Under the pieces are notes generated by a model that saw only the letters and a program-made list of their open reading frames with translations, ran no database searches and had not been told where the DNA came from. A DNA stretch of 64,000 nt from Marsupella aquatica. Lineage: Eukaryota; Plantae; Marchantiophyta. The number at the start of each line of letters is the position of its first letter. Within the stretch, counting starts at the first letter, position 1. A program made the translations under genes and the position numbers. Below, in pieces: positions 2,925 through 49,479 of the stretch. The stretch lies in the NCBI GenBank assembly GCA_973895155.1, contig OZ316895.1:16222070-16286069 (forward strand), in the 5' to 3' direction.

Positions 2925-3284
2925 TGTCATGCCGAGGGACAGTGCCTTTTGTGCACATCGGCATGTCCCTCGCATGCCCGCTAGGTATGTAGTTAGGGCT
3001 AGTGTACTACTTGAGTTAGTGTCATGTTCTTGTAGCGAGTCTGGGCTGTTCTTGAAGCAAAAGGGGTTTGTTAGTGTGGCGCCTGGACCTGGTCCTACTT
3101 AGGGCATGTTTTTCTTTATCGTTCTTCAGTTCTTCTTGAATCGCTGTTGACAGAGCTCAGACAGTGCTCGTCGGTTCCGTACACAGGATTCACACAGTGA
3201 TTCGTTAGATGCTCCCGGCCGATCTTGGCATCCCGCCAGTTTTTGATTCAATTTCAGTACGATTGTTTCTCTTACGCCTTTTAT
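2925..3284 (+). repeat. Terminal segment A (360 bp) of copy 1
   Basis: Homologous to 38907-39266 and 48448-48805. The right boundary is set by where the 48448 copy stops matching (…CGCCTTTTAT). Confidence 0.88.
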
Positions 3285-3297
3285 TCAAGAAGAACTG
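3283..3297 (+). promoter_or_regulatory. Putative self-priming primer-binding site
   Basis: ATTCAAGAAGAACTG at the A boundary is the exact reverse complement of CAGTTCTTCTTGAAT at 3127-3141. There is no TGG-starting tRNA-type PBS here. Confidence 0.6.
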
Positions 3298-6200
3298 CCG
3301 AGTTGGCGGTGAGGGGAAGAAGATAGAAGACATTCTCGTCTCAGATGTTTATGTCGGTTCAGACAATTTCCGTCGAAACCGGTGCAATTTCTTTGAGCAA
3401 CAATGGAGGGACGAGTTGAAATTATGGGTTCAATATGGTGTTATGTGTATACTTAACATAAGTATACACATAACGCTCCCGTTGGAGCCTGACTTTTCTT
3501 CCCAGTTGTACCCGGGGACCCTTTGCTGCTTCCGACTGTGGCTGCTGACTGCCACTACCTTTTTCGGGCCAATTTTGCGATGTTTTTGCAGGAGGGGCTG
3601 TCTGCATAGGGCCACGAGCCCCTTCTTGGCTGCGCCTCCCTGCGCCATGCTACCTTCCGGCCGGCTACAAGCCACGGGTTGCAGGTCGATGCCTTTACTC
3701 TTGCTCGGAGCCCTGTAAAGGGTCGCACGCCAGGTTTATTTTCGCCTCACGGCTGTGTTCGTACTGCGTCCTTCTCCCTCTGTGTATACACATCGGGGGC
3801 GACAACCTTCCCTTACCATTTTCTTTTCCTTCTGCTCACCGGTACGTGCATAGGGCATCGTGCCCTCCACTCGATTAGGACTCGTTTTCTTTCTTTCCCC
3901 TTTGCCGTTTTCTTTCCTTCCCCCCGGTTGCCAGCACTTAATAGGGGAGAGGGAGCGAGTACAAGCGAGAGCTGAGAGAGAGAGGGCACGAGGCCCTATG
4001 AAGAATTAAGGAGGGGAGGGGGAGTTCACGTCGACTCCCCTCGGGAGCCCTGCCAAGCACGAGGCCCAACTTACAGGGCATTAGAGGAGGGGAAGGGAAG
4101 CGCAAGGAGTGGGCACGAAGCCCTATGCTGACATAAAGAGGGGGAGGGGGAGTAATCATTCGACTCCCTCTCTCGGGAGTCATCCTGCAGGGCACAGAGC
4201 CCACTTTTAGCATTAAAGCAGGGGAGGGGGAATTCAATTAGACTCCCTTCTCTTGGGGGTAGGTTCACCTGTGGCCAGGCAGGAGCGCAAGGAGAGGGCA
4301 CCCGGCCCTAGGCAGCATTAAGAGGGAGTCGATTCCTTTTGCCAGGCCCAAAACTCATTTAAGGAGGGGAGGGGGAGTTAGTCGCTCCCTTCTCTTCGGG
4401 AGCACATCAGGAGCCAGGAGGGGGGGCGTGAAGCCCTATGCAGGGCCCGAGCCATTGATTGGGGCCCCATTTCTTTCCTTTCGCTGTGCCCTCGCCCTTT
4501 TCTTTTTCGCCTCGCTTCGCTTTCTCTTTTATTCACCTGCAGCAAAGCGCACGGTGCCCCCGAGTGTGTATACACACTCGTTCGGTTGCCGGTCCCCACC
4601 TGATTTTTCTTTTCGGTAGACGCGCACCTTCTGTCAGTTCCCGGGTCCACATCGGGGCCCAATGTATACACATAACTGGGCCCCATGTTTATACATTTGA
4701 AAAGGCCCAGGTATACACATGGGACGGCAATCCGACATCGCCTATGTATACACATAGGCAAGCACAACGGGGACACAATTTGAGGTTTTAAGGGTCCCTT
4801 TCCCTGATGGTTTTTCGACGGTGACGGGTTTTCTCAGTGCTTACACATTCTACACATTTTTGCCTCGCATTGTTTGTTTCCTTTGTGGGTTTCATTTCCT
4901 AGCCTTGGGGCTGCCATTTCTTTTTCTTGTCAGTTTCTTTCCCATCGGCACCCCAAGTGAGCATGCAGCATGTCAGCAGAGGAGCCGACTCATAGCAGCT
5001 CATCGCCACCAACACCCAGGTACCACTTGCGGAGTGATCCACGATCGTTGGTGCCAATTTCATTGGAGTCTCGGCAATTTCGATGACGTCAACAGACAGC
5101 AGCAGCACCCACACCACGCAATCCTTCTGCTACATTTGGCGGTCGCTTCACCTCTACCCGAAGCCTGCTATCACTTCTTTGCCTTTTTCTCCTTCTGCAT
5201 CAGTGATTGTTCCAGCTTCACCGACATACAGCATGGATGCCAGTCACTCATCTAGCTGCATTGAGCGCTTCAGCGGGCGGCCAGGCACTGTCTCTTTACG
5301 TGAGTTCAAATCCACTTTCTACACTGTCGTTTATGAATTGGTGTTGAAGTATGGCAGCAATTTCACAAATGCTTTTGCATTTAAGTAGCTAGCCAGGTAT
5401 GTGCACCATGAGGCTTTGGATGTGTATGAGCAGCACTCTCAACGGCTGCTTGCTGTCACACAGTTGCCTAACCCTACGTATGCCAGTGCAATTGCGGCGG
5501 CCTCACAATTGGCCTTACAGAATGCCATTGCAGCCCATGCTGCTGCTCCTGCCACTTCCCCTCCTACTCCAGTTCCTACCACTGCGCCAGTTACTCCCAC
5601 TGTCTTGGCACAGGCTACATCAGGCATTTGTCCCACCATTGATTCCCCTGCCTTTGCTGATCCAATGGCTGAGTTTTTCCAGGTTCTTGAATTGGAATTC
5701 CCAATCAAGAGTGCTGATAAAATCATGCAGTTGGCCACCTTTGTGAGGCAGCGCGATGAAACATTGAAGATGATGTATCGCCGGCTTCTCAAGCTAAAGG
5801 AGGACACCCAGAGCATCACTGACCTGGAAGCTGCTCATCGCTATCTTTGCGCATTGGAGGGCACACCAGCTCTCCATTTTCAAGTGTTGTAGCAAGTATT
5901 CTCAGAGTTTGGAGACAACTACACCTTGCTCAATGTCTATGACACTGCTGAGAAACTTGAGTTGGCCCATGCACATTATGAGGCCAGTATTGCGCGTCCA
6001 CCGCGATCCAGGTACCAAGCTACTGCCCCTACACTGGCCACTCCTTCCCGTGTGCCACAGTATGGTTCCAAGATCAAGCCAGCACATGCTGCTTCATGCT
6101 GCCATCTTGCAACTACTGTGGTAACCCTAATCACAAGGCTAATGAATATGATATTGTTGTTGAGGACCTGTCTTGTGATTTTTGCGGGAAAGTGGGCCAC

Positions 6201-8079
6201 TTGGAGGCAGTTTGTTTTGCCAAATTCCCCGATAAAAAGCAGCTACGACAGCAGGCCACTCATCCTGCTCCTGTTTCCACTCCCCCACCAGCTAGGAGGG
6301 CTCCTACTGCATCAATTGCTCCTCCTTCCAGTGGCAAAGCATCCAGTCATAACAAATTGCCCAAGCAGCAACAGAAGCAACCAGCTCAGAAGGACGCTCA
6401 CAACGCACAGGCAACTCAACTCCAGTCTCTGACTCATGAGGTTGAGTCATTACGTGCCCAACTTGCCAACATCAAAGGCAAGTCCACTGCCTCTCCTAGT
6501 CCTTCTCAACCGGCTGGTCACGTGCAACCCATCCCTAGCCTAGGCACCACTGACAGTTCATCACCCATACCCGCTCTTTCTATGGCTTGCCATTTGATGC
6601 TCATATGGGTGAGTGTGTGCTGTCCTCTGCTACACAGCCTGGCCGTACAGCAGAATTTTCAGATTCATTCTGCCCTTCCTATTTTGCTTACCAGCAGGCC
6701 AGTGCTGCCTCCCGTATTGCTCCCACACGCCGCATTGTACAGGCTGATGGTCTTGCTGCTGGTCCTATGACTAGAGCCAGGGGAGCTCGGGCTGTCATGC
6801 CCCAATCTTTTCAGCCACTCACACTTGCTGAAGAGCGCACCTTGTTGGCGAGGGGCGAGGGAGCTGTAGCTACATCCATTCCACCACCAGGTGCTGCTGA
6901 CATTTCACAGGGAGTTGTTTTTCCTGAGCTGCTTGAGCATTTCACCTTCGGTATGGCACAAAGGATTCTTACCACTCCACTTTTCAGTTGCCATGATTTA
7001 CAGTTGGATGCTAGAGCTGTCATCAGAGCGCTAGAGGGCTCACTGCATTCTTCATCAGCCCCTGTGACACCGGTTTTGGAGGTCCAATCTCATGTACATC
7101 CTGGACCTTCTTCTTCTCCATTACATGCTTCCACTGGTTTGGCTATCCCAGTACCGATTTCTAGTGGTAGAGATGACAGTATTGCTGCAGATTGTGTGAC
7201 CAGAGCTACACTTGATTCTGGTCATGCTGCTCCATCTTTCTTGGCTATGCTGTTGAGTGGGAAGACCGTGGACACTAACTCCCTTCACAAGGTACCTCAT
7301 CATTTGCCAAAAGTGGTGCCTAGTGACAGGACTTTAGTTTCCACCACCATTGCCATTGTTGACAACAGGAATTCAGCAGTCAAGTTGGAGGGTCACACTC
7401 CTCAGGTGGTCATGCTAGACACAAGCGCTCAACCAGTAATCTTGGGCATTCAGTTTGCCAAGAAGATGGGACTGCTGACTGATCATTTACAGCAATCCAG
7501 GTGGCACATTCGGACTGCTAGTGGCACTATGAAGGATGTGTTGGGTGAGAGTTCTACTTTACTCACTCTCACTTTTAATGGAGGTACAGATCAGGAACTG
7601 CATTTCCCAGTCAGATGTTTGGTTACCAATGCCACTACGTATGATGTGCTCATTGGCCAAGAGGCTTTGTTCCCACCAGGTTTTACCATTAACAACTGGC
7701 ATGAGCATGCATACTACAGAGTTGATTGGCATACGGATGGCTCACACTTGGGATACATTCCACTTGATTTGCATGGTGCCCATACCCCTATGGCTCACCA
7801 CTGTGTGTTGAAAGCAGTGCACACAGCTACCTATGTCAACCACCCATTGCAGGATTGGATTGAGGAGGATGATGATGAGGTGGCTACTGCACATGCTGCT
7901 GCACGTATAGCAGCCCTTTCCAGCAACGTGGATCATCAACCAGAGGTGGTACAACGGCTCCAAGCAGCCCATGGACCTTTGGTGGCTGCATTGCACAAAT
8001 TTGAGGACCTTGGGCAGCACAATGGACAACCAATAGCCCCAATCTTGAGCGCACCAGTTACATGGACTCCTCCTTCAGA

Positions 8080-9020
8080 TGGCCTTACATTGCTTGAGCT
8101 TTTTGGTGGCATTTCTACAGGCCTGGAAGCTCTCCTAAAGTCTGGCATGGTGGTGAAGCAGTACATCTATGTGGATATTGATCCAGGTGCAAGGCAAGTG
8201 GCTGAATCCCGTCTGCTGGAATTTTCAGAGCGATTTCCCCAACAGTTTCCGCATAGTGCATGGACGTCTGCATTTTCTTTCTTCCCTCCAGATATCCAGC
8301 TTGTCCAGCACCGGCACTTAACCCTTCTTGGCTCCCTTGATTTGATCATAGCTGGTTGGGAATGCCAAGGGTTTTCAGCTGCTGGTCACGGTGCTGGACT
8401 GCATGATTCTCGTTCTGGCCTTTTCACAGCATTGGTTCAAATTCTCACCTGGGCTCAATCCCTTTATCCTGCTATTGGTTATATCATTGAGAATACTCCA
8501 TCTCAGTTTGACCAGCGTCCACAGGTCAAAGAGGATTTCAGTGTGGTCCAGCACTACTTGGGACCACCCCTTCTCATTGATGCAGTGCACTGTGGTTCTT
8601 ATGCACATCGTCTTCGTAACTTTTGGACTAACCTTGCACCACCTTCCTTGCTGGAGATGGCTCTTCACCACACATCCAGGGACACTAACCTCACAGTGGA
8701 CCAGATTTTGGATGCTGACAGTCCTTGCGAACCAGTTACACGGCAAGAGCCAACACCTTGGTATCCAGCCAATACCATTGGACAACCCCGTGCTGCTTGG
8801 CCTACATTTGTGTCCTTTCCAGGTGCACATGCTTTTTAGGGTGATGGTCCTGGTCTGGTTTATCGACATTCTACCGGTACATGGGATGAACCTAGTCCTG
8901 AGGAGAGAGAACGGGCTATGGGCTTCCAACCCGGTACTACAGGTCACACCAAAATCACCAGGCTGGCCAGGAATGCTTTACTTGGCAGGGTAATGGATCT
9001 CAATGCTCTCACTTGGCTTA
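8080..9020 (+). other. DNMT3/DRM-like C5 DNA cytosine methyltransferase domain within the polyprotein
   Basis: Motif I LLELFGGIS, IV IIAGWECQGFS (Cys kept), VI YIIENT, VIII AHRLRNFWTNL, IX EERERAMGFQPGTT, X RLARNALLGR. These resemble DNMT3 AHRARYFWGNL / EMERVFGFP / RLARQRLLGR. There is an in-frame TAG at 8837-8839. Confidence 0.88.
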
Positions 9021-12000
9021 TGGTCACTTGCATCCTTTTTCAGGTGTCCATTCCTCCAGCATTAGGAGCTCCAGCCCTACCACTCCACAGTGTTGTTGCA
9101 TGGCATCCAGACCAGGTGCACTTACCTCTGTCCAACACTCACCACTTCAGTCCAAGTGTTGGGGGGGAGGAGGTCCCTTGTAATGCGGCTGACATTATTT
9201 CTGAGTTTCATGGTGTGGACCACTTCAGATCAGCAGGTACAACAGGCCTTGGAGAGGCCTCATCACCTTATCAGCAGCATGCTAGCAGCTTGGACAGTGG
9301 AGAGGCTGGCACTTCTGGCTCTTCAAGCACGAGTACATCAGGTCCTATTCCTAGTGTTGCCAACTACACATTTATCATGGGCAACCACCTGAGTAAAAGA
9401 CAGAAGGACCAACTGCTGAATTTTCTCCTCAAGCATGAGAATGTGTTTGCTTTCTCTATGAAGGACTTGGGTAAGTGCAAGACTATGCAGTTCTCCATTG
9501 AGTTGGTTGATGAAACACCTATCTTCAGGCGGAGACACCGTTTGAGTAAGCATGAGTGGCAGCTGGTGGATGAGAGGTGCCAAGAGCTCTATGAAGCTGG
9601 TCTTATTCAGCCATCTACATCAGATTTTGCAGCAGCTACAGTGATGCCAGCAAAGAAGGATTCCAGTGGATTGTGGACAGAGAAGCGCATGTGTGGGGAC
9701 TACAGGCCATTGAACCTGGTCACACCCCATGACAGGTACCCCATGCCGCGGCCAGAGGAGCTATTTGACAGTATTGGAGACTCAGACATCTTCACTCTTG
9801 TGGATCTAAGGCAAGGCTTCAACCAGATTTTGCTGCTTGCAAAGGATCGCAAGAAAACATCTTTCCATGGTAGTAACCAACTATGGGAGTGGTTGGTGAT
9901 GCCATTTGGCTTGAAGAATGCGCCCATATTCTTTCAAAGAGTCATGGACCAGGTTCTTCAAGGTGCTGAGTTTCTGAAATGCTACATTGATGATGTGTTG
10001 GTCCACAGCAAAGGATTTGACCAGCATCTACTTGACCTTGAGGAGCTATTCATGAGGCTTAAGAAGGTGAACCTAAAGATACAGCCCAAGAAGTGTGAAT
10101 TTGCTGTCAGATCAGTAGTATACCTTGGGCACCGCATTCTTCCAAATGGAACCATGGCTCACTGGGCCAAGGTGGCATCCATCTTGGAAATGCCCACTCC
10201 TACCGACGTTCACACTTTGAGGAGCTTTATTGGGTTGTGCAATTACTACCGGATCTACATCAAAGATTTTAGTACCATTGCACACCCATTGTACTCTTTG
10301 TTGAAAAACAATGTGCCTTGGACATGGAGTACAGATGCTGAGGCAACATTTGCCACTTTGAAGGAGAAGCTCTCAAAATACCCAATGCTAAGAAGACCTG
10401 ATTTCAGCAAGGTCTTTGTGCTACACACAGATTGGAGTGCCCTTGGGATTGGTGCCATTCTGGGCCAGCATGATGAGGAAGGTAAAGAGTATGTCATTGC
10501 CTATGCATCCAGGAGCAACAATCAGGCAGAGAGTCATTATTCTTCTTATGAGGGTGAATGCCTTGCTGTTGTGTGGGCTATCATACATTACAGGCCCTAC
10601 CTCTATGGGACCAGGTTTGTTCTCTACACCGACCACCAGCCCTTGAAGTGGTTGATGACCAATGACAAGCTTACTGGCAAGCTTGCTCGTTGGGCGCTCA
10701 TACTCCAGGAGTATGATTTTGAGGTAATTCATAGGCCTGGTGTGACACATCAAAATGCTGACACTATGTCCTGCAGCCCTTTGATTGCCTCTGATGATCC
10801 CTCAGATGCACGGTAGGATTTTGACCAGGTTTCCATCCTGCCTACATTTCATGCATCTACCTATCTTGCTTTGTTGCCATGCTACATTGTTGACCAACCT
10901 GTGGTGGACATATGGGAGAACAACGACACTCTGAGATTTTTGCAGGATGGGGAGTACCCCACCCATGTTACTGCTGCCCAGAGAGACCGAATTCAGCAAA
11001 GGTCCAAGCGCTACTTGTGAAAGGGAGATTATCTTGTGCCGCTGCTTGCCAGACAGGGAAGTGGTGGTTCCACCCATTCATGAGAGGGTTGGCCTTATCC
11101 GTAAGGTACATTCTAAGCTTGGTCATTTTGGTGTTAAGAGGACTTATAGCCTCTTGGTCCCCCATTATCATTGGAGAGGCATGCATGGCTAGGTTCGAGA
11201 TGTTATTGCCCGGTGTGAGCAATGTGATAGGGTAAGGACTTCTTTCACATCTCGGCAACCCACACTTCATCCACTCCCTATTCAGGGCATGTTTTATCGT
11301 TGGTCATGTGATTTGGCTGGAGAATTACCCCTCACATCTCGGGGTAATCTCTACATCATGATCATGATAGAGCATTTCTCCAAGTGGATAGAACTTGTGG
11401 CATTGCCAGATAAGACCTCCCGTAGCACCAGCCAGGCATTCTTGCAACAAGTTCTCAGCCGCTTTGGAGCTTGTGCATAATGTCTCACTGACCAGGGCTC
11501 AGAGTTTAGAGGAGAGTTCCAGGAGCTGCTTGATCAGGCTCTCATTGATCATCGCCGGACATCACGAGATCACCCACAGGCAAATGGCTTGGCAGAGCGC
11601 ATGGTTCAGACATGCAAGAAGGGCCTTCGGAAGATCTGCCTCACCAAAAACAAGGAGGATTGGGACCTGGCCTTACCCTACATTGCCATGGGGTATAGGA
11701 TGTCCAGACATGCATCATTGTCTAACTTTTCTCCCTACTTCTTGTTGTTTGGTCGTCACCCAGTTCCACCTTCTGCTATTGCTTCTCACATGCTTCAGGT
11801 GGTGGACTTGGATTCAGCTGTGACTTGGTCTGATGTGATCTCTGAGAGGGCTGCCCTATTCAGGAGGGTTATGCCCATGGCCATGGAGAATTTGGCCATT
11901 GCACAGCTCAGGGACACACTGCGTTATGCACACACACGAGGGGGCACTTTTCAGCCCAAGGTCAGGAAGTTTGAAGTGGGAGATTTTGTGTACTTGCAGC

Positions 12001-12203
12001 GGCAAGCTAACGACACCCTGGACACCTCTACCAGTCGCACTATTCTCAGGGTCAAAGCTATTCGACCGTTTGGAGTGCTAGAGTTACAAGGGGCAGATGG
12101 GCGCACAATTGCTGACAATGCCAAGAATTGCGCCCCTTGTCATCTGCCTAACCTGGATCCCACCATTGTGACTTCTACTTGGATTCCACCTGTGGACTAC
12201 CCT

Positions 12204-12338
12204 TGCAAAGTGTGTTTGCGAATTGATGATGCTTACCAGATGCCGCTGTGTGACAATTGCAATGGAGGGTACCATCTTTTCTGCCTTCGGCCTGAACTTC
12301 CCCAGGTGCCAGAAGGGTTATGGTTTTGCCCTTCCTGT
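12204..12338 (+). other. PHD finger at integrase C-terminus
   Basis: CKVC-x9-CDNC-x4-H-x2-C-x14-WFCPSC, a C4HC3 pattern. It recurs at ~48078-48212 and, degenerate, at ~28366-28505. Confidence 0.92.
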
Positions 12339-12388
12339 GCTCCACGTGCTATCTGACTTTTCTTCAGCCCTCCTTTTGGCTGTGGTCT

Positions 12389-12395
12389 GGGGGGG
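12389..12395 (+). promoter_or_regulatory. Putative polypurine tract (G7) abutting segment B
   Basis: GGGGGGG lies directly before ATACAGAGG, the first bases of B. The same arrangement is at 48263-48269, and GGGAGG precedes B in the 27.3-28.7 kb copy. Confidence 0.65.
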
Positions 12396-12571
12396 ATACA
12401 GAGGTTTACACCTCCACTACGTACATACCACCTCAGTTGCTTTTTCTTGGCACTTGTGAATGTGATTGAACTTTTTCTATGCATGTTGGTTGCTAGCAGC
12501 TTGCACATATGCATTGCCGGTGACTTGTATGTTTTCGATACACTATGGCTACGATACTATATGTCACGACA
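12396..12571 (+). repeat. Terminal segment B (176 bp) of copy 1
   Basis: Same length and near-identical sequence to 48270-48445 and 48806-48981. Confidence 0.9.
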
Positions 12572-32559: not shown

Positions 32560-32772
32560 CTCTTCCCCTTGACTCTGGTCTAGGGGAGAGTAATACTGCC
32601 AATGTATATGATCCCTCAGCGGAAAGTTCTGGACAAAAACCAAACCGGTTTCCCTCTCTAACTAGAGCAAACCAGAATAAGCCGTAGCCTTATACATAGG
32701 AATGAGGAAGAGCATATATCAGTAATTACAATGAATGTTAAGAAAACTCTACTTGTGATGCAATTGCAAAAC

Positions 32773-35700: not shown

Positions 35701-36888
35701 GACTTGAAGTTCACCATCAATTACTCGCCATTGATGACCATTTATATCCAACACACCGAGTGAAATCAAATTCTTACGCATGCTAGGTACAAACCTGACT
35801 CCGGACACTATGCGCACAATGCCATCAAACATTTGAATCTTTACAGACCCAATACCCTCAACTTGACAGGAGTGATCATTTCCCATCAAAACTGAACCGT
35901 TTGACACAGAATAAGAATTGAAATACTCGCAAATGTAACAAATGTGAAAGGAGCAAGCACAATCAAGAATCCACACATCATTTACTCTCCTAGATGATGT
36001 GCACAGGGCATACTCCTGACTTCATAAAACATACTCATCGTTGAGTAAATCAACTTCTCCATCAACACTAGCCACATTGGCTGATGAAGATTCAGCTGCC
36101 TTACCCTTACAATCCCTCTTAATGTGGCCAGTCTTGCCACACTTCCAGCATACTACCGGCTTCCTCTCTTGGGACTTCCCCCTTGAAGCAAATATTGTCC
36201 TAGATTTACTTCTTCCCCTGCCATCTGTGTGGTGCTCTAGATGCTTCTGTGACCTCCCACGATTCACATTCAAGGCAGCACCAGACGACGATGATGGTTG
36301 AGAGGGCATGGTCAATTTTTGCTGCAAGTCATCAGTCAACAGAGCACTTACAACTTCATTATAAGTGATAGTCAGCCTGTCACGATGAAGCAGCACTCGT
36401 GACAATGACTGATACGACAAGGGTAAAGAGCTAAGCAAGTGAAGAGTCTGCCGCTCATCACTCAAATCCTCCCCCAGATTTTGCAAATCAATGACCAGGT
36501 CGTTGAAACCATCGATATGGTCCTGAATCTTTGCACTTCCCTCCTTCATCTTGAAGCTCATAAGCTTCAAAGATGTGTAGAGCCGATTTGATAGCTCCTT
36601 TTGATGGTACTTTTGCTCCAACGCAGCAAACAATGATGCACAATTGACATGGTCTACCAATTGCTTGATGACATTAGGCTGAAGATAGAGCATCACGGTG
36701 CTCACAGCCTGCTCCTACATGTCCTGCCAATCATCATTGTCGACATCATTTGGCTGGTCCTTCAACAATTTCCCAAGCCCGGTTGCACGGAGTACCCCCT
36801 TCACTTGCCGCTCCCACAACAAGTAGTCCGTGCGACCATCGTATTTTGTAACCTCAAACTTGGGACCTCCAAGCTTGATTGTTCCCAT
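32773..36888 (-). pseudogene. Copia Gag-PR-IN-RT-RNase H polyprotein, disrupted
   Basis: KYDGRTDYLLW Gag, CWKCGKTGHIKRDC knuckle, WILDCACSFH protease, LWHSRLGH…CEHC, HSDVWGP / RSDNGGEY integrase, KARLVAKGF and LYVDDM RT, CDSQSA / NPADAFTK RNase H. Split over ORFs 36912-36715, 36705-36022, 35976-35662, 35613-35131 and 35055-32773. Confidence 0.95.
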
Positions 36889-37941
36889 CCTTTTTCTTGT
36901 CACTCGCCGCAATACCGGTGACTACAATTCCGCTAGATCTTCTGCTTCCTCCTCTGTTCTCTCCGGTGACTCAACAGAACCCTCCTCCAAGTCACTCATG
37001 TGAGAAATCAAGAAAAATGATATTTTTCTTAACTTCTCCAAACACTCAAAGGTTATCACTACCACGTAGCCCACGAGCCTAGCTTTCCAACGCTGAAAAC
37101 CAGAATCAAAACCAAACTTTGACGTAAAAGTTATTCACTTTTCGGTCGGGATGGGTAAAACTTGGAATTCTCCCCCGTTTTGACCATCTCGGGGAATAAC
37201 CAAAATGTGAACTAGTACCCGACGTCGGAAATGCAATTCAATTTGTGCACCGTGTTGCCAACTCTGATGGCTTGTCAACAACGAATGTTGATGAATTGCA
37301 CAGTTTGGTACCGTCACCAAGTCCAACAAGGTAATTGATTTCGCTTAGCCTTCCTCTTCCCATCAAAGAGCCAATCCTGGACTCAAAACAATCGTCTTGC
37401 CTCAATCTCTCCGTTGAGTCAAAACACTTGACGCTTCTCCCTCCGAGTTGATCGCAACGACAAGAAATCCCGCTCAGGCAAAAGAGGACTCCATAGCCGG
37501 TCAGAAAATCAGAATGCTTCTTTTGCTCGTTGCGACGCACTCGTTACACACTCGACAATAAACCATCTACCAAAATGATCAGCTCATCCCGATCTACAAG
37601 CAGAGCTACAACATGCGACGCCTTCTTCGCCGTAGAGCTCACACCGTCGAGAAAACACACTCTGGTCCCTCCTCCAAAAAATCGTTGAACACGAATGTTG
37701 CCGACTTTCTTCACAAAATCCAGAATGACAAAAACTTAGATCTCTCCGCACCATGAGCTCCGTTCAGCGATTTCTTCACACCGTTAGAAAGCCTTTGCCC
37801 AGATCTATCCGTTGAGCCCATAAACTCCAAGTTCCATGCGATGGAACTTTGGGAAATCCACCGACACTCAACGCTGAAAAAAACCGTCACAAAATCCCAT
37901 CACGAACACATGTCACCTCCCAGGCATGCTCTGATACCAAT

Positions 37942-38326
37942 TGTTGAGTATAGACGATAATCGCAACGGTAAGCACATGACATATCCAACATGCAAGTAG
38001 TCGACACAAGAGATACGTGGTTCACCTCCTTGAGGCTACGTCCACGGGAACACACAAGAGAGCTTTACTGAACTCTAAGCCCGTCGGCTATACCGAGTCT
38101 CCACAGTGTAAGCTCTCCCTATCTCTCAAGTGGCTCCATAACAATGAGCCTTGGTTCTACTTCTCCAAGCACACGTGCCTCTTATGATATAGTGTGCAAC
38201 TTAGTTAACCTAACCACATTATTGTACCTAATCACGTAGTTGTACCTAACCACGTAGTTGTACCAAACCATGTTGTTGTATCAACCACGTCATACCTAAC
38301 CTAGACGTAAGAGTAAATACCCAACA
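37942..38326 (-). repeat. Copia 5' LTR (385 bp)
   Basis: Adjacent to the PBS; direct repeat of 32103-32559. Confidence 0.93.
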
Positions 38327-41097
38327 ATTGGAAAGGCAAAGAAATTCAAAAACTCATTTGGAACTTGACAAAATTTGTCAATCTGAGGCTCATTGGAAAC
38401 ACTTTCTTGATTAAGAGATGTCACAATCTCGTCACCGTCACAAACTTAGCCATTGCAAATTGATTTTTTGATTACATCGCCATCGCTTTTCTGCAACCCT
38501 TGCTTCTTGGCTTGAGTTGTTCACGTCCCTCCAATCTTCAACTGAAGCTCACTCTGAACACAGGTTGACACCAAATGCAGCCTCTATGTTGAAGAAACAA
38601 TCGCTGGTCTCCCCCTCACACCATAGCTTTCTTAAATAAAAAACTACAAAACCTTCATGTGAAGTGATGGCTCGTCCATTTTGTGCGTTCTTTCCACCAA
38701 AACGACAAGCACTCTTTTGCCAACAATTGAGTGTTGTCCTTCAATTTGTCTTGTGGCAATAATGCTCAATGTAACTCACAAATGATCAATCAAGATTGGT
38801 AGAAACACGATTTCTCCAATATGTAAGCAAAAACCATAAAACAACTCAATTCCTCCATATTCAACCTTCTGTTTGATAAACCAGAGAGATCATCTCAACT
38901 AGATTGTGTCATGCCGAGGGACAGTGCCTCTTATGCACATCGGCATGTCCCTCACATGCCCGCTAGGTATGTAGTTAGGGCTATTGTACTACTTGAGTTA
39001 GCGACATGTTCTTATAGCAAATGCCAGGCATTCTTGAAGCAAACACACGCTTGTTAGTGTGACGCCATGACTTTGTTTACTTAGGGCATGTCTTTCTTTG
39101 TGGGTTTTCAGTTCTTCTTGAATCGCTGTTGACAGAGCTCAGACAGTGCTCGTCGGTTTCGTACACGGGATTCACACAATGATTCCTTAGATGCTCCCGG
39201 CCGATCTTGGCATCCTGCCGGTTTTCGATTTGATTTCAGTACGATTGTTTCTCTTACACCTTTTATTCAAGAAGAACTGCTGAGATAGCGGTGAGGGGAG
39301 GAAGAAGACAATTTATGGTGAAGCCATTGCAATTTCTTCGACGGACATCGGAGGGATGAGTTGAAATTATGGGTTCAATATGGTGTTATGTGTATACTTA
39401 ACATAAGTATACACATAACGCTCCCGTTGGAGCCCGACTTTTGCTTTCCAGTTGCATCTGGGGACCCTTTGCTGCTTTCGACTATGGCTGTCGGTTGCTG
39501 ACTGCCACAACCTTTTTCGGGCCATATTCGGTGTTTTCCGGTCATAGCGCGACCACCTTCCCTTTGCCTTACGTTTTCACGACCCTTTGGGGTCCCGTTC
39601 TTTCTTTTCCCTCACCGGCCCACCTCCCCTCGCAGCTACCGTCGCGAGGTGCCTCCCAGTCCTGCCTGTGTATACACATGCGGGGCTCATCATTGCCCCT
39701 GGGTCGCGCATAGAGCCGCGCGCCCTCCCTTCGGCGTTTTTCTTCCTCCTGCGCCCGTTGCCAGCATCTCGGCCAACATTTAATTAAGCGCGAGGAGGGG
39801 GAGCCGACCAGGAGCACAAGCGCAAGGAGAGGGCACGAGGCCCTATGAAGATTTAAAGAGGGAGGGGGAGTTAACGTCAACCCCCTTCGGGAGTCCTTCT
39901 GCAGGGCACGGAGCCCACTGTCAGCATTGAAGAGGGGGGGAGTAAACGTAGACTCCTTTCGGGAGTCCTCTTGCAGGGCACAAAGCCCTTCAGTAGCATT
40001 AAAGCCAGGAGGAGGGGAGCAGGAGCGCAAGGAGTGGGCACGAGGCACTATGCTGCAATAAAAGGAGGCCAGGAGGGGGAGCGAGAGTGCCAGGAGAGGG
40101 CACAAGGCCCAAGCTGCATTAAAGGAGGGGAGGGGAGTTCAATTCAAACTCCCTCACACGGGAGTACTTAGGCCTGCCAGGGCACGAAGCCCCAAGGAGG
40201 CTTCGGGAGCTCATAAGGAGGGGGAGGGGGGTGCGAAGCCCTATGCAGGGCTCATTTCTTTTTCTTCGCCTCACTCTTCCCGTTTTCTTTTCGCTTTTTT
40301 TGGCTTGTCTCGCTTTTTTGCCGCGCGACGATCGACCTGTTTCCATCTCTCAGGTCCACATCGGGCTGATGTGTATACACTTTAGGGGGGCCCTTTCACA
40401 TTTTGTAGGGCCCATTTCTTTCCGTTTGCTCTTACCTTGCCATCGACGACCTCCATAGAGCACCGTGCCCGGATACTGTGTCCCACTTGGCCCGGTTTCC
40501 TTTCCCCGCTGACGCACGCCTCTTTGGTTTCCCTTTTCCTGCCAGTTTTTGGGTCCACATAGGGGCCCGATGTATACACTTAAGGGGGGGGCACTTCTAT
40601 TTTCTTTTCCCAGATTTCTTTATTGCCGCCAACATTAGGCCTTTTCGGAGTTTTTAAGGGGCTTTTCTTTGCTGACGGTTTTTCTCTGTGACGGTTTTTC
40701 TGTGTGTTTACACATTCGACACATTGCTGCCTTGCACCGGTTGCCTCCTTTGTGGGTTTCATTTCCTAGCCTTGGGGTTGCCACTCCTTTTTCTTGTCAA
40801 TTTCTTTCCCATTGGCACCCCGGGTGAGCATGCAGCATGTCAGCCGACAAGCCAAGATGTAGCAGCTCATCACCACCGACACCCAAGTACCATTTACGGA
40901 GTGATCCACGACCATTGGTGCCAATTTTATTGGAGTCTCGGCAATTTCAATGACATCCACAGACAGCAGCAGCACCCACACCACGCAATCCTGCTCAATT
41001 TGGCGGTCGCTTCACCACTACTCCAAAGCCTGCTATCACTTCATTGCCATTTACCCCTTCTGCATCTGTGATTATTCCTGCTTCACCAACATATAGC

Positions 41098-44000
41098 ATG
41101 GACGCCAGCCACTCATCTGGCCGCATTGAACGCTTCAGTGGGCGGCCAGGCACTGTTTCTTTACGTGAGTTCAAATCCACTTTCTACACTGTCATTTACG
41201 AATTGGAGTTGAAGTACGACAGCAATTTCACAAATGCTTTTGCATTTAAGCAGCTAGCTAGGTATGTGCACCATGAGGCTTTGGATGTGTATGAGCAGCA
41301 CTCTCAATGGCTGCTTGGTGTCACACAGTTGCCTAACCCTACCTATGCCAGTGCAATTGCGGCAGCTTCACAATTGGCCTTACAGAATGCCATTGCAGCC
41401 CATGCTGCTGCTCCTACCACTTCCCCTCCTACTCCAATTCCTACCATTGCGCCAGTTACTCCCACTGTCTTGGCACAGGCTACATCAGGCATTTCTCCCA
41501 CCATTGATTCTCCTGCTTTTGCTGATCCAGTGGCTGAGTTTTTCCAGGTTCTTGAATTGGAATTCCCAATCAAGAGTGTTGACAAAATCATGCAATTGGC
41601 CACCTTTGTGAGGCAGCGCGATGAAACCTTGAAGATGATGTATCACCGGCTTCTCAAGCTGAAGGAGGATACCCAAAGCATCACTGACCTGGAAACTGCT
41701 CATCGCTATCTTCGCGCATTGGAGGGCACACCAGCTCTCCATTCGCAAGTGTTGCAGCAAGTATTCTCAGAGTTTGGAGACAGCTACATCCTGCTCAATG
41801 TCTATGACACTGCTGAGAAACTTGAGTTGGCCCATGCACATTATGAGGTCAGTATTGCACGTCCACCGCGATCCAGGTACCAGGCTGCTGCCCCTACACT
41901 GGCCACCCCTTCCCGTGTGCCACAGTATGGTTCCAAGACCAAGCCAGCCCATGCTGCTTTCATGCTGCCATCTTGCAACTACTGTGGTAACCCAATCACA
42001 AGGCTAATGAATGTGATATTGTTGCTGAGGACCTGTCTTGTGATTTTTGTGGGAAAGTGGGTCACTTGGAGGCAGTTTGTTTTGCCAAATTCCCCGAGAG
42101 GAAGCAGCTACGACAACAGGCCCCTCATCCTACTCCTGCTTCCACTCCCCCACCAGCTAGGAGGGCTCCAATTGCCTCAGTTGCTCCTCCTTTCAGTGGC
42201 AAAGCACCTGGTGCCAACAAATTGCCCAAGCATCAACAGAAGCAACCAGCTCAGAAGGAGGCTCACAACGCACAGGCAACTCAACTCCAATCTCTGACTC
42301 ATGAGGTTGAGTCCCTACGTGCCCAACTTGCCAACATCAAAGGCAAGTCAATTGCCTCTACTGGTCCTTCTCAACTGGTTGGTCACGTGCAACCCATCCC
42401 TGGCCCAGGCACCACTGACAGTTCAACACCTCTACCCCGCTCTTTCTATGGCTTGCCATTTGATGCTCATATGGGTGAGTGTGTGCTGTCCTCTGCTACA
42501 CAGCCTGGTCTTACAGTAGAATTTTCAGATTCATTCTGCCCATCCTATTTTGCTTACCAACAAGCCAGTGCTGCCTCTCGTATTGCTCCCACACACCGCA
42601 TTGTACAGGCTGATGGTCTTGCTGCCGGTCCTATGACTAGAGCCAGGGGAGCTCAGGCTGTCTTGCCCCAATCTTTTCAGCCACTCACACTTGCTGAAGA
42701 GCGCACCTTGTTGGCGAGGGGGGAGGGAGCTGTAGCTACATCCATTCCACCACCAGGTGCTGCTGACATTTCACAGGGAGTTGTTTCTCTTGAGCTGCTT
42801 GAGCATTTCACCTCCGGTATGGCACAAAGGATTCTTACAACTCCACTTTTCAGTTGCCATGATTTACAACTGGATGCTAGAGCTGTCATGAGAGTGCTAG
42901 AGGGCTCACTGCATTCTTCATCAGCCCCTGTGCCACCGGTTTTGGAGGTCCAATCTCATGTACATACTGGACCTTCTTCTTCTCCATTACATGCTTCCAC
43001 TAGTTTGGCTATCCCAATACCAATTTCCAGTGGTAGAGATGACAGTATTGCTACAGATTGTGTGACCAGAGCTACACTTGATTCTGGTCATGCTGCTCCA
43101 TCTTTCCTGGCTATGCTGTTGAGTGGGAAGACCGTGGACACTAACTCCCTTCACAAGGTACCTCATCATTTGCCAAAAGTGGTGCCTAGTGACAGGACTT
43201 TAGTTTCCACCACCATTGCCATTGTTGACAACAGGAATTCAGCGGTCAAGTTGGAGGGTCACACTCCTCAGGTGGTCATGCTAGACACAGACGCTCAACT
43301 AGTGATAAATTGGGCATTCAGTTTGCCAAGAAGATGGGACTGTTGACTGATCATTTACAGCAATCCAGGTGGCACATTCGGACTGCTAGTGGCATTGTGG
43401 AGGATGTGTTGGGTGAGAGTTCTACTTTACTCACTCTCACTTTCAATGGAGGTACAGATCAGGAATTGCATTTCGCAGTCAGATGTTTGGTTACCAATGC
43501 CACTACGTATGATGTGCTCAATGGCCAGGAGGCTTTGTTCCCACCAGGTTTTACCATTGACAATTGGCATGAGCACGCATACTACAGAGTTGATTGGCAT
43601 ACGGATGGCTCACACTTGGGCTACATTCCACTTGATTTGCATGGTGCCCATACACCTATGGCTCACCATTGTGTGTTGAAAGCAGTGCATATAACGACCT
43701 ATGTCAACCACCCATTGCAGGATTGGATTGAGGAGGATGATGATGAGGTGGCTGCTGCACATGCTGCTGCACGTATAGCAGCACTTTCCATCAGCGTGGA
43801 TCATCAACCAGAGGTGGTACTACGGCTCCAAGCAGCCCATGGACCTTTGGGGGCTGCATTGCGCAAATTTGAGGACTTGGGTAGCACAATGGACAACCGA
43901 TAGCCCCAATCTTGAGCGCACCAGTTACATGGACTCCTCCTTCAGATGGCCTTACATTGCTTGAGCTTTTTGGTGGCATTTCTACAGGCCTGGAAGCTCT

Positions 44001-47000
44001 CCTACAGTCTAGTATGGTGGTGAAGCAGTACATTTACGTGGACATTGATCTAGGCGCAAGGCACGTGGCTGAATCCCATTTGCTAGAATTTTCAGAGCAA
44101 TTTCCCCCACTCAGCAGTTTCCACACAGTGCATGGAAGTCTGCAATTTCTTTCTTCCCTCCAGATATCCAGCTTGTCCAGCACCGGCACTTAACCCTTCT
44201 TGGCTCCCTTGATTTGATCATAGCTGGTTGGGAATGCCAAGGGTTTTCAACTGCTGGTCACGGTGCTGGATTGCATGATTCTAGTTCTGGCCTTTTCGTG
44301 TGGCATTGGTTCAGATTCTCACCTGGGCTCAATCCCTTTATCCTGCTGTTAGTTATATCATTGAGAATACTCCATCTCAGTTTGACCAGCGTTCACAGGT
44401 CAAAGAGGATTTCAGTGTGGTCCAGCATTACTTGGGACCACCCCTTCTCATTGATGCAGTGCACTGTGGTTCTTATGCACATCGTCTTCGTAACTTTTGG
44501 ACTAACCTTGCACCACCTTCCTTGCTAGAGTTAGCTCTTCACCACACATCCAGGGACACTAACCTCACAGTGGACCAGATTTTGGATCCTGACAGTTCTT
44601 GCCAACCAGTTACACGGCAAGAGCCAGCACCTTGGTATCCAGCCAATACCATTGGACAGCCCCATGCTGCTTGGCCTACATTTGTGTCCTTTCCAGGTGC
44701 ACATGCTTTTTAGGGTGATGGTCCTGGCCTGATTTATCGACATTCTACCGGTACATGGGATGAACCTAGTCCTGAGGAGAGAGAACGGGCTATGGGCTTC
44801 CAACCCGGTACTATAGGCCACACCAAAATCACCAAGCTGGCCAGGAATGCTTTACTTGGTAGGGTAATGGATCTTAATGCTCTCACTTGGCTTCTGGTCA
44901 CTTGCATCCTTTTTCAGATGTACATTCATCCAGCATCAGGAGTTCCAGCCCTACCACTCCATGGTGCTGCTACATGGCATCCAGACCAAGTGCACTTACC
45001 TCTATTCAACACTCATCGCTTCAGTCCAAGTGTTGGGGGGAAGGAGGTCCCTTGTAATGTGGCTGATATTATTTCTGAGTTTCATGGTGTGGATGAGACC
45101 AGCGTAACAAATACAACAGGCCTTGGAGAGGCCTCGTCACCTTATCAGCAACATGCTAGCAGCTTGGATAGTGGAGAGGCTGGCACTTCTGGCTCTTCAA
45201 GCACGAGTACATTAGGTCCTATTCCTAGTGTTGCCAACTACACATTCATCATGGGCAACCACCTGAGTAAAAGACAGAAGGACCAGCTGCTAAATTTGCT
45301 CCTCAAGCATGAGAACGTGTTTGCTTTCTCTATGAAGGACTTGGGTAAGTGCAAGACCATGCAGTTCTCCATTGAGTTGGCTGATGAAACACCTATCTTC
45401 AGGCGAAGACTTTGTTTGAGTAAGCATGAGTGGCAACTGGTGGATGAGAGGTGCCAAGAGTTATATGAAGCTGGTTTTATTCAGCCATCTACATCAGATT
45501 TTGCAGCAGCTACAATGATGCCAGCAAAGAAGGATTCCAGTGGATTGTGGACAGAGAAGCGCATGTGTGGGAACTACAGGGCACTGAACCTGGTCACACC
45601 CCAGGACAGGTACCCCATGCCACGGCCAGAGGAGCTATTTGACAGCATTGGAGACTCAGACATCTTCACTCTTGTGGATCTAAGGCAAGGCTTTAACCAG
45701 ATTTTGCTGCTTGCAAAGGACCGCAAGAAAACAACTTTCCATGGTACTAACCAACTATGGGAGTGGTTGGTGATGCCATTTGGCTTGAAGAATGCGCCCA
45801 TATTCTTTCAAAGAGTCATGGACCAGGTTCTTCAAGGTGCTGAGTTTCTGAAATGCTACATTGATGATGTGTTGGTCCACAACAAAGGATTTGACCAACA
45901 TCTACTTGACCTTGAGGAGCTATTCATGAGGCTTAAGAAGGTGAACCTAAAGATACACCCCAAGAAGTGTGAATTTTCTGTCAGATCAGTAGTATACCTT
46001 GGGCACCGCATTCTTCCAAATGGAACCATGGTTCACTGGGCCAAGGTGGCATCCATCTTGGAAATGCCCACTCCTACCGATGTCCACACTTTGAGGAGTT
46101 TTATTGGGTTGTGCAATTACTATCGGATCTACATCAAAGATTTTAGCACCATTGCACACCCATTGTATGCTTTGTTGAAAAAGAATGTGACTTGGACATG
46201 GAGTACAGATGCTGAGGTAGCATTTGCCACTTTGAAGGAGAAGCTCTCAGAATACCCGGTGCTGAGAAGACCTGATTTCAGCAAGGTCTTTGTGCTACAC
46301 ACAGATTGGAGTGCCCTTGGGATTGGTGCCATTCTGGGCCAGCATGATGAGGAAGGTAAAGAGTACGTCATTGCCTATGCATCCAGGAGCAACAATCAGG
46401 CAGAGAGTCATTATTCTTCTTATGAGGGTGAATGCCTTGCTGTTGTGTGGGCTGTCATACATTACAGGCCCTACCTCTATGGGACCGAGTTTGTTCTCTA
46501 CACCGACCACCAGCCCTTGCAGTGGTTGATGACCAATGACAAGCTTACTGGCAAGCTTGCTCGTTGGGTGCTCATACTCCAAGAGTATGATTTTGAGGTA
46601 ATTCATAGGCCTGGTGTGACACATCAAAATGCTGACACTATGTCCCGTAGCCCTTTGATTGCCTCTGATGATTCCTCAGATGCATGGCAGGATTTTGACC
46701 AGGTTTCCATCCTGCCTACATTTCATGCATCTACCTATCTTGCTTTGCTGCCATGCTACGTTGTTGACCAACCTGTGGTGGACATATGGGAGGACAACGA
46801 CACTCTGAGATTTTTGCAGCATGGGGGGTACCCCATACATGTTATTGCAACCTAGAGAGACCGAATTCAGCAAAGGTCCAAGCGTTACTTGTGGAAGGGA
46901 AATCATCTTGTGCGCTGCTTGCCAGACAGGGAAGTGGTGGTTCCACCCATTCATGAGAGGGTTGGCCTTATCCATAAGGTACATTCTGAGCTTGGTCATT

Positions 47001-48230
47001 TTGGTGTTAAGAGGACTTACAGCCTTTTGGTCCCTCATTATCATTGGAGAAGCATGCATGGCCAGGTTCGAGATGTTATTGCCCGGTGTGAACAGTGTGA
47101 TAGGGTGAGGACTTCTTTCACATCTCGGCAACCCACACTTCATCCACTCCCTATTCAGGGCATGTTTTTATCGCTGGTCATGTGATTTGGCTAGAGAATT
47201 ACCCCTCACGTCTCGGGGTAATCTCTACATCATGATCATGATAGAGCATTTCTCCAAGTGGATAGAACTTGTGGCATTGCCGGATAAGACCTCCCGTAGC
47301 ACCAGCCAGGCATTCTTGCAACAAGTTCTCAGCCGCTTTGGAGCTTGTGCAGAATGTCTCACTGACCAGGGCTCAAAGTTTAGAGGAGAGTTCCAGGAGC
47401 TGCTTGATCAGGCCCTCATTGATCATCGTTGGACATCACGAGATCACCCACAGGCCGATGGCTTGGCAGAGCGCATGGTTCAGACATGCAAGAAGGGCCT
47501 CCGGAAGATTTGCCTCACCAAAAACAAGGAGGATTGGGACCTGGCCTTACCCTACATTGCCATGGGGTATAGGATGTCCAGACATGTATCACTGTCTAAC
47601 TTTTCTCCCTACTTCTTGTTGTTTGGTCGTCACCCAATTCCACCTTCTGCTATTGCTGCTCACATGCTTCAGGTGGTAGACTTGGATTCAGCTGTGACTT
47701 GGTCTGATGTGATCTCTAAGAGGGCTGCCCTATTCAGGAGGGTTATGCCCATGGCCATGGAGAATTTGGCCATCGCACAGCACAGGGACACACTACGTTA
47801 TGCACTTACACGAGGGGGCACTTTTCAGCCCAAGGTCAGGAATTTTGAAGTGAGAGATTTTGTGTACTTGCAGCGGCAAGCTAACGACACCCTGGACACC
47901 TCTACCAGTCGTACTATTCTCAGGGTTAAAGCTATTCGACCGTCTAGAGTGCTAGAGTTACAAGGGGTAGATGGGCGCACAATTGCTGACAATGCCAAGA
48001 ATTGCGCCCCTTGTCATCTGCCTAACCTGGATCCCACCATTGTGACTTCTACTTGGATTCCACCTGTGGACTACCCTTGCAAAGTGTGTTTGCAAATTGA
48101 TGATGCTGACCAAATGCTGTTGTGTGACAATTGCAATGGAGGGTACCATCTTTTCTGCCTTCGGCCTGAACTTACCCAGGTGCCAGAAGGGTTATGGTTT
48201 TGCCCTTCCTGTGCTCCACGTGCTACCTGA
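41098..48230 (+). pseudogene. Disrupted Gag-PR-DNMT-RT-RH-IN-PHD polyprotein, copy 2
   Basis: Same domains as 5233-12356 (LDTDA protease, LLELFGGIS…AGWECQGFS…IENT MTase at ~43950-44890, YIDD, TDWS, TDQG/AER, PHD), with mostly different frameshifts and stops. Confidence 0.92.
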
Positions 48231-48269
48231 ATTTTCTTCAGCCCTCCTTTTGGCTGTGGTCTGGGGGGG

Positions 48270-48981
48270 ATACAGAGGTTTACACCTTCACTACGTACAT
48301 ACCACTTCATTTGATTTTTCTTGGCACTTGTGAATGTGATTGGACTTTTTCTATGCATGTTGGTTGCTAGCAGCTTGCACATATGCCTTGCCGGCGACTT
48401 GTATGTTTTTGATACACTATGGCTATGATACTATATGTCACGACAGCTGTCATGCCGAGGGACAGTGCCTCTTATGCACATCGGCATGTCCCTCGCATGC
48501 CCGCTAGGTATGTAGTTAGGGCTAGTGTACTACTTGAGTTAGCGACATGTTCTTATAGCAAATGCCAGGCGTTCTTGAAGCAAACACGCTTGTTAGTGTG
48601 ACGCCAGGACTTTGTTTACTTAGGGCATGTCTTTCTTTGTGGGTTTTCAATTCTTCTTGAATCGCTGTTGACAGAGCTCAGACAATGCTCGTCGGTTCCG
48701 TACACGGGATTCACACAGTGATTCGTTAGATGCTCCCGACCGATCTTGGCATCCCGCCGGTTTTTGATTCGGTTTCAGTACAATTGTTTCTCTTACGCCT
48801 TTTATATATAGAGGTTTACACCTCCACTACGTACATACAACTTCATTTGCTTTTTCTTGGCACTTGTGAATGTGATTGGATTTTTTCTATGCATGTTGGT
48901 TGCTAGCAGCTTGCACATATGCCTTGCCGGCGACTTGTATGTTTTTGATACACTATGGCTACGATACTATATGTCACGACA
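48270..48981 (+). repeat. B1-gc-A2-B2 split-direct-repeat block
   Basis: B1 and B2 are each 176 bp and A2 is 358 bp. The junctions read CACGACA-GC-TGTCATG and CCTTTTAT-ATATAGAGG. Confidence 0.92.
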
Positions 48982-49479
48982 ATTGATCTTTTCTATCTTT
49001 CGAGCGTTTTTTTTTACAAGCACACACCAAGACCACCGGGAGACTCAAAACCATCGGTTATTGCCTTGTTGAAAATTGATTTCACTTCATCGCACACACA
49101 TTCCTTGGATGAACATGGGGGTCCACGGATTAATTCATTAGGTTAGTTGGAGTTTATGAATTAATGAATGGATTGAAGGAATGGCAAGCAGAGAATGGAG
49201 CAGCTTTCCCACAAGAAGACAGTCATAGCAAAGATTTGGCTAGTGAGGTTTGCGGACTATATCATTGGCAGTCTGAGGTCCAATTTCACTTTGGGTCAAC
49301 CAAATGAGTATTATTCTTGTTGTGATTGGTTAGATGAAAAGGTTGATTCAAGAGACACGATTGTTCATCTATGAATATAATCTCCATGTGATATAGATAT
49401 ACTTAGGGTTTGGTTAGAGAGGACCTATACATCACAAAGGGCTATTGAGGTTTTAACGCAACGCGTCAAAAATCTAGAG

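Follow-up and report, generated by a model that had tools for sequence, protein, structure and literature searches.

The window analysed here is a 64,000-nucleotide stretch of the liverwort Marsupella aquatica (contig OZ316895.1, positions 16,222,070 to 16,286,069), in which three copies of one retrotransposon family are found. Copy 2, at positions 38907-48981 of the window, is a broken copy of a plant Ty3/Gypsy-type retrotransposon with permuted terminal repeats: it reads A1-internal-B1-gc-A2-B2 and is bracketed by one 4-bp target-site duplication (TSD). On balance, sequence comparison suggests that this insertion form is a permuted genome with two long terminal repeats (LTRs), which would be produced by self-primed reverse transcription, a cut at the left palindrome and joining of the ends of the complementary DNA (cDNA).

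Layout and priming signals

An earlier note, made from the letters of this DNA alone, had proposed the same coordinates, the same order of repeats and a single ATTG duplication, and all three are borne out by the repeat identities (table 1) and by an empty site. The empty site lies in the opposite arm of an inverted repeat (51210-50945), which runs through the insertion point with a single ATCG; therefore the target duplication of copy 2 is 4 bp long. At 31 alignment columns, A1 and A2 share a state that is not found in copy 1, compared with 12 and 6 columns for the other two pairings, as the note had anticipated in stating that A2 carries subfamily bases of A1 that copy 1 lacks. For B1 and B2 this holds at 6 columns, for the other two pairings at 3 and 3.

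Table 1. Features of copy 2 and of the other family copies (positions in the window).
Feature	Positions	Strand	Remarks
Left TSD, ATTG	38903..38906	+	One copy at the paralogous empty site, inverted arm 51210-50945
A1	38907..39266	+	Begins with TGTCATG; predicted to contain R, U5, the transcript start and part of the promoter
Predicted self-primer at RNA 5' end	39109..39123	+	Exact 15-nt reverse complement of 39265-39279
Putative self-priming primer-binding site	39265..39279	+	Overlaps the end of A1 by its first two bases
Perfect hairpin in 5' leader	39385..39419	.	16-bp stem; identical in copy 1
gag region	40954..43346	+	Two overlapping broken frames with CCHC-like knuckles; weak match to first open reading frame of L088
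Aspartyl protease region	43229..43903	+	Frameshifted from gag; match to L088 residues 531-639
DNMT3-like cytosine methyltransferase (DNMT) domain	43897..44917	+	Three broken frames; PF00145, E 9e-5; motifs I, IV and VI
Reverse transcriptase and RNase H, Ty3/Gypsy type	45236..46855	+	Pfam RVT_1 and two RT_RNaseH models
Integrase	46856..48077	+	Zinc finger, D,D(34)E core, C-terminal part; frameshift near 47165; rve E 2e-13
PHD finger	48078..48212	+	Integrase C terminus; PF00628, E 8e-12
G7 tract, predicted plus-strand primer (polypurine tract)	48263..48269	+	B begins at the next base
B1	48270..48445	+	Ends CACGACA
Perfect 10-bp palindrome across B1/gc/A2	48442..48451	.	Predicted integrase cleavage site; 2-nt spacer also in relatives and L088
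A2	48448..48805	+	95.0% identity to A1
A2/B2 joint	48805/48806		Predicted join of two cDNA ends; imprecise in 10 of 20 relatives
B2	48806..48981	+	96.6% identity to B1; closes the element with CACGACA
Right TSD, ATTG	48982..48985	+
Copy 1	2925..12571	+	A-internal-B only; TSD TCTC (4 bp); about 94% identity to copy 2
Copy 3	27346..~28697	+	Old, internally deleted A...B derivative

The repeats are permuted, the primer-binding site standing after A1 and the polypurine tract before B1. The note was right that B starts directly after the G7 tract (48263-48269, then 48270) and that A ends at a putative primer-binding site; it missed that this site appears to be self-priming. In 1000 shuffles of A, none reached the 15-nt pairing between the site and the predicted 5' end of the RNA, and one reached 14 nt. 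The primer pair is identical in copy 1, copy 3 has a 14-nt pair altered on both sides, and L088, an intact relative, has a 13-nt pair of different sequence. Between families the pairing shows two-sided changes, and its position is conserved in the relatives. A tRNA-type primer site was dropped as a candidate, since no TGG follows A and self-complementarity explains the boundary; no tRNA search was made.

The relatives are the best 80 of 581 related metagenome loci, which show 55-80% protein identity, roughly 70% overall, and whose A and B cannot be aligned to those of the window except at the B-A junction. The test for a TATA-spaced primer covered 23 of 24 5' ends, the remaining one giving no pattern match, and in 22 of these 23 a TATA box is followed, 31-34 nt further on, by the antisense of a 12-nt primer site. 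This antisense matches at 9-12 of 12 positions, and shuffled sites reached at least 11 matches in 8 of 1150 trials. The promoter and transcript start of A1 are predicted from this spacing. The G-tract stands directly before B in all three families (window, relatives and L088); a control pattern for the junction between G-tract and B recovered 27 of 33, and of the six misses, four proved on reading to be cases in which the pattern had caught the wrong place. The same arrangement of palindrome, G-tract and self-primer is found in L088, at a protein identity of 44%. In L081, the normal case in the same data, TG directly follows the G-tract. The G-tract and the primer site place one cDNA end at the start of B and the other at the end of A; B-gc-A, already suggested in the note, is thereby supported as the LTR of reverse transcription.

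Some further motifs were observed in these regions. The perfect hairpin and repeated TGTATACAC motifs of the 5' leader (39385-39419, 39668, 40371 and 40571) are kept in copies 1 and 2 and not in the relatives. In the relatives (L001 8996-9285 and others), A contains upstream of the TATA box a TTAGGG motif, which we take to be telo-box-like, and a GGCCCA motif, presumably site-II-like, and B ends in three CACGACA-like units.

Recurrence of the layout and the proposed integration route

As judged from these sequences, the permuted layout is family-wide and is not a chance tandem. Forty 3' ends could be classified, seven of them repeats of the same insertion, which leaves 33 distinct ends: B-nn-A-B in 20, B followed by flank in 11 and B-nn-A followed by flank in two. 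The note had considered that no other copy might show B-gc-A-B, and the 20 B-nn-A-B ends answer this point. On the 5' side, 24 distinct ends were obtained from 26 full-length ones (decayed or inverted ends of L011, L035 and L059 were omitted from the count), and none of the 24 is a mirror form with B upstream, for which P is about 1e-5 if either site were cut equally. Among the 12 distinct related elements with both ends, the 4-bp TSD is exact in five, agrees at three of four positions in six and at two of four in one.

The two junctions differ in their precision. The spacer between B and A is 2 nt long in all 22 distinct junctions (GC in 9, AC in 6, GT in 3, AT in 3, TA in 1), and 21 of the 22 are GC or its deamination products AC, GT and AT. 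The A/B joint (n = 20), in contrast, is exact in 10 cases, carries one extra base in four, lacks 1-3 bases in three and has large deletions in three. In one of the latter (L009), only the last 29 nt of B are left, with the A end exact and the TSD perfect; in another (L029) the start of B is retained to within 2 nt. An invariant B-gc-A beside a variable A/B joint is as expected if the former is templated and the latter repaired. Two elements, L017 and L071, have a 3' end exactly at the raw A end, which fits a free end at this position. A1 and A2 of one element are sisters in four of eight elements, the other four falling in one unresolved subfamily. A solo A/B mini-element with its own 4-bp TSD (L037, 17317-17795) is the counterpart of a solo LTR.

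In public sequencing runs of three organisms, many different flanks meet the start of A and the end of B. Logan contigs bridge both B-gc-A (X1 record 3; X2 record 13) and A/B (X2 record 15; X5 record 29, which has 30 letters on the short side of the joint); X5 has no cover of the B-A junction, X11 gave one contig, and contig depths were not taken as copy ratios. Among viral contigs, the alignment matched seven loci, none of this clade, and P0158, the L088 Pol and the pattern of G-tract plus palindrome matched nothing.

These observations can be brought together in a cycle of five steps, the first four of which we consider highly probable as a shared core. First, the RNA would start inside A1, about 32 nt past the TATA box, and end inside A2. 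Second, its first 12-13 nt would pair with the site that directly follows A and serve as primer for the minus strand, in the manner of Tf1. Third, the G-tract would prime the plus strand, giving a cDNA of the form [B-gc-A]-internal-[B-gc-A], as its boundaries suggest. Fourth, a staggered cut after CA on both strands of GACAGCTGTC would yield two integrase ends with 2-nt overhangs, the same ends that integrases normally produce by trimming two bases, and concerted insertion of these would give the 4-bp TSD and the loss of "gc". Fifth, the left site may be used first because it would be the first to become stably double-stranded after the second strand transfer; the integrase would keep hold of the short B piece, and host end-joining would seal A to B. 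For this order of events we lean only slightly towards the left site first and end-joining afterwards. In the standard LTR scheme, the left site is completed after about 500 nt of displacement synthesis, and the right one only once about 9 kb of plus strand has been made. If the site were captured before displacement synthesis, A...B would result. Such A...B copies would be dead ends, arising from a one-LTR intermediate, from a double cut or from later recombination between B1 and B2, and R would be present twice only in A...B-gc-A-B. The absence of mirror forms among 24 ends favours an integrase that acts on the left site of linear or unfinished cDNA.

The strongest alternative, which we regard as possible but unlikely, is that the blunt ends of the cDNA are first ligated into a two-LTR circle and the integrase then opens one palindrome. 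Its product would be identical to that of the order preferred above, imprecise A/B joints look like circle junctions, and the solo A/B element of L037, with its own 4-bp TSD, would also agree with it. Furthermore, according to the accessible parts of the reports on HIV-1 and foamy virus, retroviral integrases cut the internal palindrome of two-LTR junctions, and such circles can integrate (PMC1905944, PMC4372172, PMC1180852). In those viruses the palindrome consists of two ends placed head to head, is a by-product of end ligation, and its use is a side route, whereas in the clade of copy 2 the LTR itself carries the palindrome, which seems to be the sole site used. In a circle, however, both sites lie in identical 500-bp contexts and mirror forms would be expected, yet none is seen, and in two cases the 3' end coincides with the raw A end. 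The circle would also need an additional cue close to the primer site, and the leader hairpin, which was tried as such a cue for site choice and rejected, is not conserved: stems of at least 9 bp occur in just 5 of 24 related leaders, and none is the same. The circular form of contig L088 was set aside as evidence for a circle, because a collapsed repeat gives the same. With regard to the mechanism suggested in the note, a DDE integrase most likely does open the internal ACA-gc-TGT; with no mirror form in 24 and raw A ends in 2 of 33, a linear substrate fits at least as well as a free circle.

It is less probable still that the reverse transcriptase, after finishing the plus strand, jumps from its end to the start of B in a rolling-circle-like manner and without host ligation. 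This process would be one-directional and would account for the absence of mirror forms, and the one-base additions in 4 of 20 joints suit non-templated addition. However, T, with which the primer site begins, accounts for two of the four added bases, so that these may be primer remnants, and the joints of L009, L029 and L079, in which one or both sides carry deletions, suit end-joining equally.

A far weaker case can be made for A...B as the actual unit, with A2-B2 as an independent mini-element that landed in tandem. A...B is indeed seen in two of the three window copies and in 11 of 33 related 3' ends, and a solo A/B exists (L037). Nevertheless, a single TSD brackets the whole of copy 2, the spacer is 2 nt in 22 of 22 junctions and not a 4-bp duplication, A2 bears the subfamily marks of its own element, and A...B lacks the repeated R, so that no first strand transfer would take place. 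A tyrosine recombinase acting in trans, as in PAT or Ngaro, which show the same A...B-A-B layout in the available text (PMC8969392, PMC8547959), is hardly credible in view of the 4-bp TSDs, the TG...CA ends, the loss of a 2-nt spacer and the conserved DDE integrase, and none was found in copy 2 or in the intact L088. Equally hard to credit is an assembly artefact: repeats 500 bp apart are difficult for short-read assembly, but A1/A2 and B1/B2 differ by 3-5%, the TSD and the empty site agree, and 20 unrelated insertions, as well as Logan contigs, show the same layout.

Several observations weigh against the route that we prefer, namely self-primed cDNA cut at the left palindrome and sealed by end-joining. 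Every step of it is deduced from insertion products, and the census consists of old copies in short-read metagenome contigs of another host, not of the genome of the window. In the window's own family, no TATA box can be seen ahead of the primer. The two B-nn-A ends, L017 and L071, come without 5' ends, and a later insertion at the joint or a chimeric contig might account for either of them. Of eight complete relatives, four show a difference of a 19-nt tandem unit between A1 and A2, and in 3 of 20 elements B1 and B2 are set apart by a 15-nt terminal unit; strict copying predicts identity, and therefore slippage, later deletion, template switching or assembly error is needed. Finally, the best match of B2 is the B1 of its own element in 3 of 20 cases, which is a weak test by raw identity since the copies are 80-96% alike and heavily deaminated.

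Coding content, relatives and precedents

Copy 2 encodes, in this order, Gag, protease, DNMT, reverse transcriptase, RNase H, integrase and a PHD finger, with frameshifts and stops in gag, protease, DNMT and integrase. The Pfam scan gave no match in its gag region, and the aspartyl protease is matched by Pfam in the corresponding frame of copy 1. In L088 there are only two long frames, Gag-protease-DNMT and reverse transcriptase-RNase H-integrase-PHD, separated by one in-frame stop, which suggests read-through between the first frame and Pol. The L088 element (1-9285) has open frames and lies on a contig filed in a cyanobacterial metagenome-assembled genome, where it is probably eukaryotic contamination.

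The best PDB matches of the DNMT domain of L088 are DNMT3A and DNMT3B. In motif IV, the window has GWECQG, as do 31 of 38 motif matches (loci and window together), and GWPCQG is found in 33 of 38 stored proteins; both variants retain the catalytic Cys. The enzyme would probably methylate CG in new cDNA. The PHD finger has its PDB matches among the fingers of WSTF, CHD4, ATXR5, KDM5 and BAZ2, which mostly read unmethylated H3K4, and it would probably steer insertion to chromatin with unmethylated H3K4. The best PDB match of the reverse transcriptase-RNase H is the Ty3 reverse transcriptase (E 7e-67), ahead of caulimovirus and retroviral enzymes, and the integrase matches those of Ty3 and PFV. 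The spacing from the second Asp to the Glu is 34 residues in all 20 integrases of the clade and 35 in all 11 other Ty3/Gypsy integrases, and the GP[YF] (GPF/Y) motif is present in none of the 20 compared with 8 of the 11; these counts refer to rows that match the pattern, rows with no core or no match being left out, and some of the clade proteins are truncated. In a scan of 27 frames, among them those of copy 2 that run for at least 150 amino acids without a stop, no Pfam family of tyrosine recombinases was found, in line with the note, which had seen none in copy 2.

Copy 2 shares with Ty3/Gypsy elements (Metaviridae) the order protease-reverse transcriptase-RNase H-integrase, the TG...CA termini, a TSD (4 bp) within their range of 4-6 bp and a Ty3-related reverse transcriptase-RNase H, and it lacks complete terminal LTRs, the D,D(35)E spacing and the GPF/Y motif. 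A tree of reverse transcriptase-RNase H was built from those 110 of 172 proteins that cover at least 340 of 400 core residues, with a quick search and a midpoint root. All rows bearing PHD or DNMT fall on one side of a branch with 99% support in the Shimodaira-Hasegawa-like approximate likelihood ratio test (SH-aLRT), together with proteins of Calypogeia, Marchantia, Closterium and Pycnococcus and apart from the chromodomain-bearing rows. The tree is without DIRS, BEL, Troyka and Klebsormidium rows and does not fix the place of the clade within Gypsy. Among the matches listed, the nearest named relative belongs to the liverwort Calypogeia fissa (80% identity). Seven hypothetical proteins of Marchantia polymorpha (P0142, P0145, P0147, P0149, P0150, P0152 and P0153) show 37-42% identity to the protease-DNMT part of L088, and these gene models are probably copies of the clade. 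Since they are related to Gag-protease-DNMT, annotations of liverworts and algae probably cover the clade bearing DNMT3 and PHD incompletely.

The layout itself is already in print, and the copy in the window is dead. KnitGypsy-Dnmt3, reported from the alga Klebsormidium nitens only (de Mendoza et al. 2018, PMC5890265), has the Gypsy domain set, a DNMT3-related domain in Pol and, according to the legend of its Fig. 4c, repeats "the same as that of a DIRS retrotransposon", and copy 2 shares all three characteristics; the novelty claimed in the note was therefore overstated. The available text of that report names no TSD, termini, primer, palindrome, PHD or mechanism. As matched by the published description, the family of copy 2 is most likely a land-plant member of the KnitGypsy-Dnmt3 kind. 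No Klebsormidium-labelled proteins were present among the 120 and 49 matches listed in two protein searches. Streptophyte Gypsy-DNMT3 elements are mentioned in passing in the accessible part of a 2026 preprint, and in the literature searched, which was without Repbase and closed journals, no account of an integration mechanism for such elements was found.

Other systems were compared with copy 2 as well. As described in the accessible text on the DIRS order, PAT and Ngaro have split repeats, a tyrosine recombinase and no TSDs (PMC8969392, PMC8547959). Elements of the PAT, Ngaro and TOC1 type share with the family of copy 2 the order A1-internal-B1-A2-B2 and the solo AB repeats, and copy 2 differs from them in its DDE integrase, its 4-bp TSDs, its Ty3-like reverse transcriptase and in that no tyrosine recombinase was found; the TSD and the last point rule out membership in DIRS. 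Tf1/sushi and Tcn1 prime their minus strand by themselves, as far as the consulted text describes (PMC6317226), and these chromoviruses share the self-priming, seen here as sequence pairing only, and the Ty3/Gypsy domain order. They have ordinary end-to-end LTRs and a chromodomain, in contrast to the PHD, the DNMT and the permuted repeats of copy 2. Membership among chromoviruses was rejected, as a PHD stands in place of the chromodomain and the reverse transcriptase lies across the 99% SH-aLRT branch from the chromodomain-bearing rows. Troyka, to which the note had pointed, proved the wrong lead. These elements also are LTR retrotransposons with atypical ends, Gypsy domain order and no GPF/Y motif, but by the accessible account they have CG...CG termini, 3-bp TSDs and ordinary paired LTRs and occur in animals only (Kojima 2025, PMC12440569), which is ruled out for copy 2 by its TG...CA ends and 4-bp TSD. 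Ginger DNA transposons were rejected as well: they have terminal inverted repeats and a Gypsy-like integrase without a reverse transcriptase, whereas copy 2 has both a reverse transcriptase and RNase H, and its terminal inversion covers just a few bases.

What appears undescribed, from the comparisons made here, is the self-primer 31-34 nt past the TATA box, the G-tract before B, the imprecise A/B joint, the absence of mirror forms, the clade-specific D,D(34)E integrase and the putative integration route. The DDE integrases of retroviruses and LTR retrotransposons are taken to use linear cDNA ends as their substrate, and cutting at two-LTR circle junctions is a debated side route. It is fairly likely that an old clade of LTR retrotransposons from green plants has abandoned integration by its cDNA ends in favour of a palindromic site of its own, a D,D(34)E site-specific cutter and obligatory host end-joining. 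If this is true, it would represent a third insertion route for LTR-type elements and would provide a working model for the origin of split direct repeats, including those of tyrosine-recombinase elements. The route also shows concretely how the A...B-A-B layout could be derived from a two-LTR cDNA of the ordinary kind. As the family appears to insert only via the internal palindrome, a 10-bp site and a clade-specific integrase offer a natural setting in which this chemistry can be tested. Programs that search for LTRs would likely miss such elements.

Other features of the window

The inverted repeat that houses copy 2 is a foldback-like element (31702-32102, 38327-38906 and 48982-49135 against 50951-52068) with arms of about 1.1 kb that are 84-88% complementary; its left arm received both retrotransposon insertions, and its right arm supplies the empty site. 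The other insertion, which lies in this left arm some 600 bp away from copy 2, is a Ty1/Copia element (32103-38326, minus strand) with gag, integrase and reverse transcriptase and with LTRs that are 95-99% alike and contain 18-nt tandem units. A second inverted-repeat element lies at 19211-20647 (arms of about 330 nt, 83-85%), and a 69-nt tandem array at 16108-16396. An exon of a trehalose-6-phosphate synthase/phosphatase gene (60366-62357, minus strand; Glyco_transf_20 and Trehalose_PPase) belongs to an ordinary plant gene.

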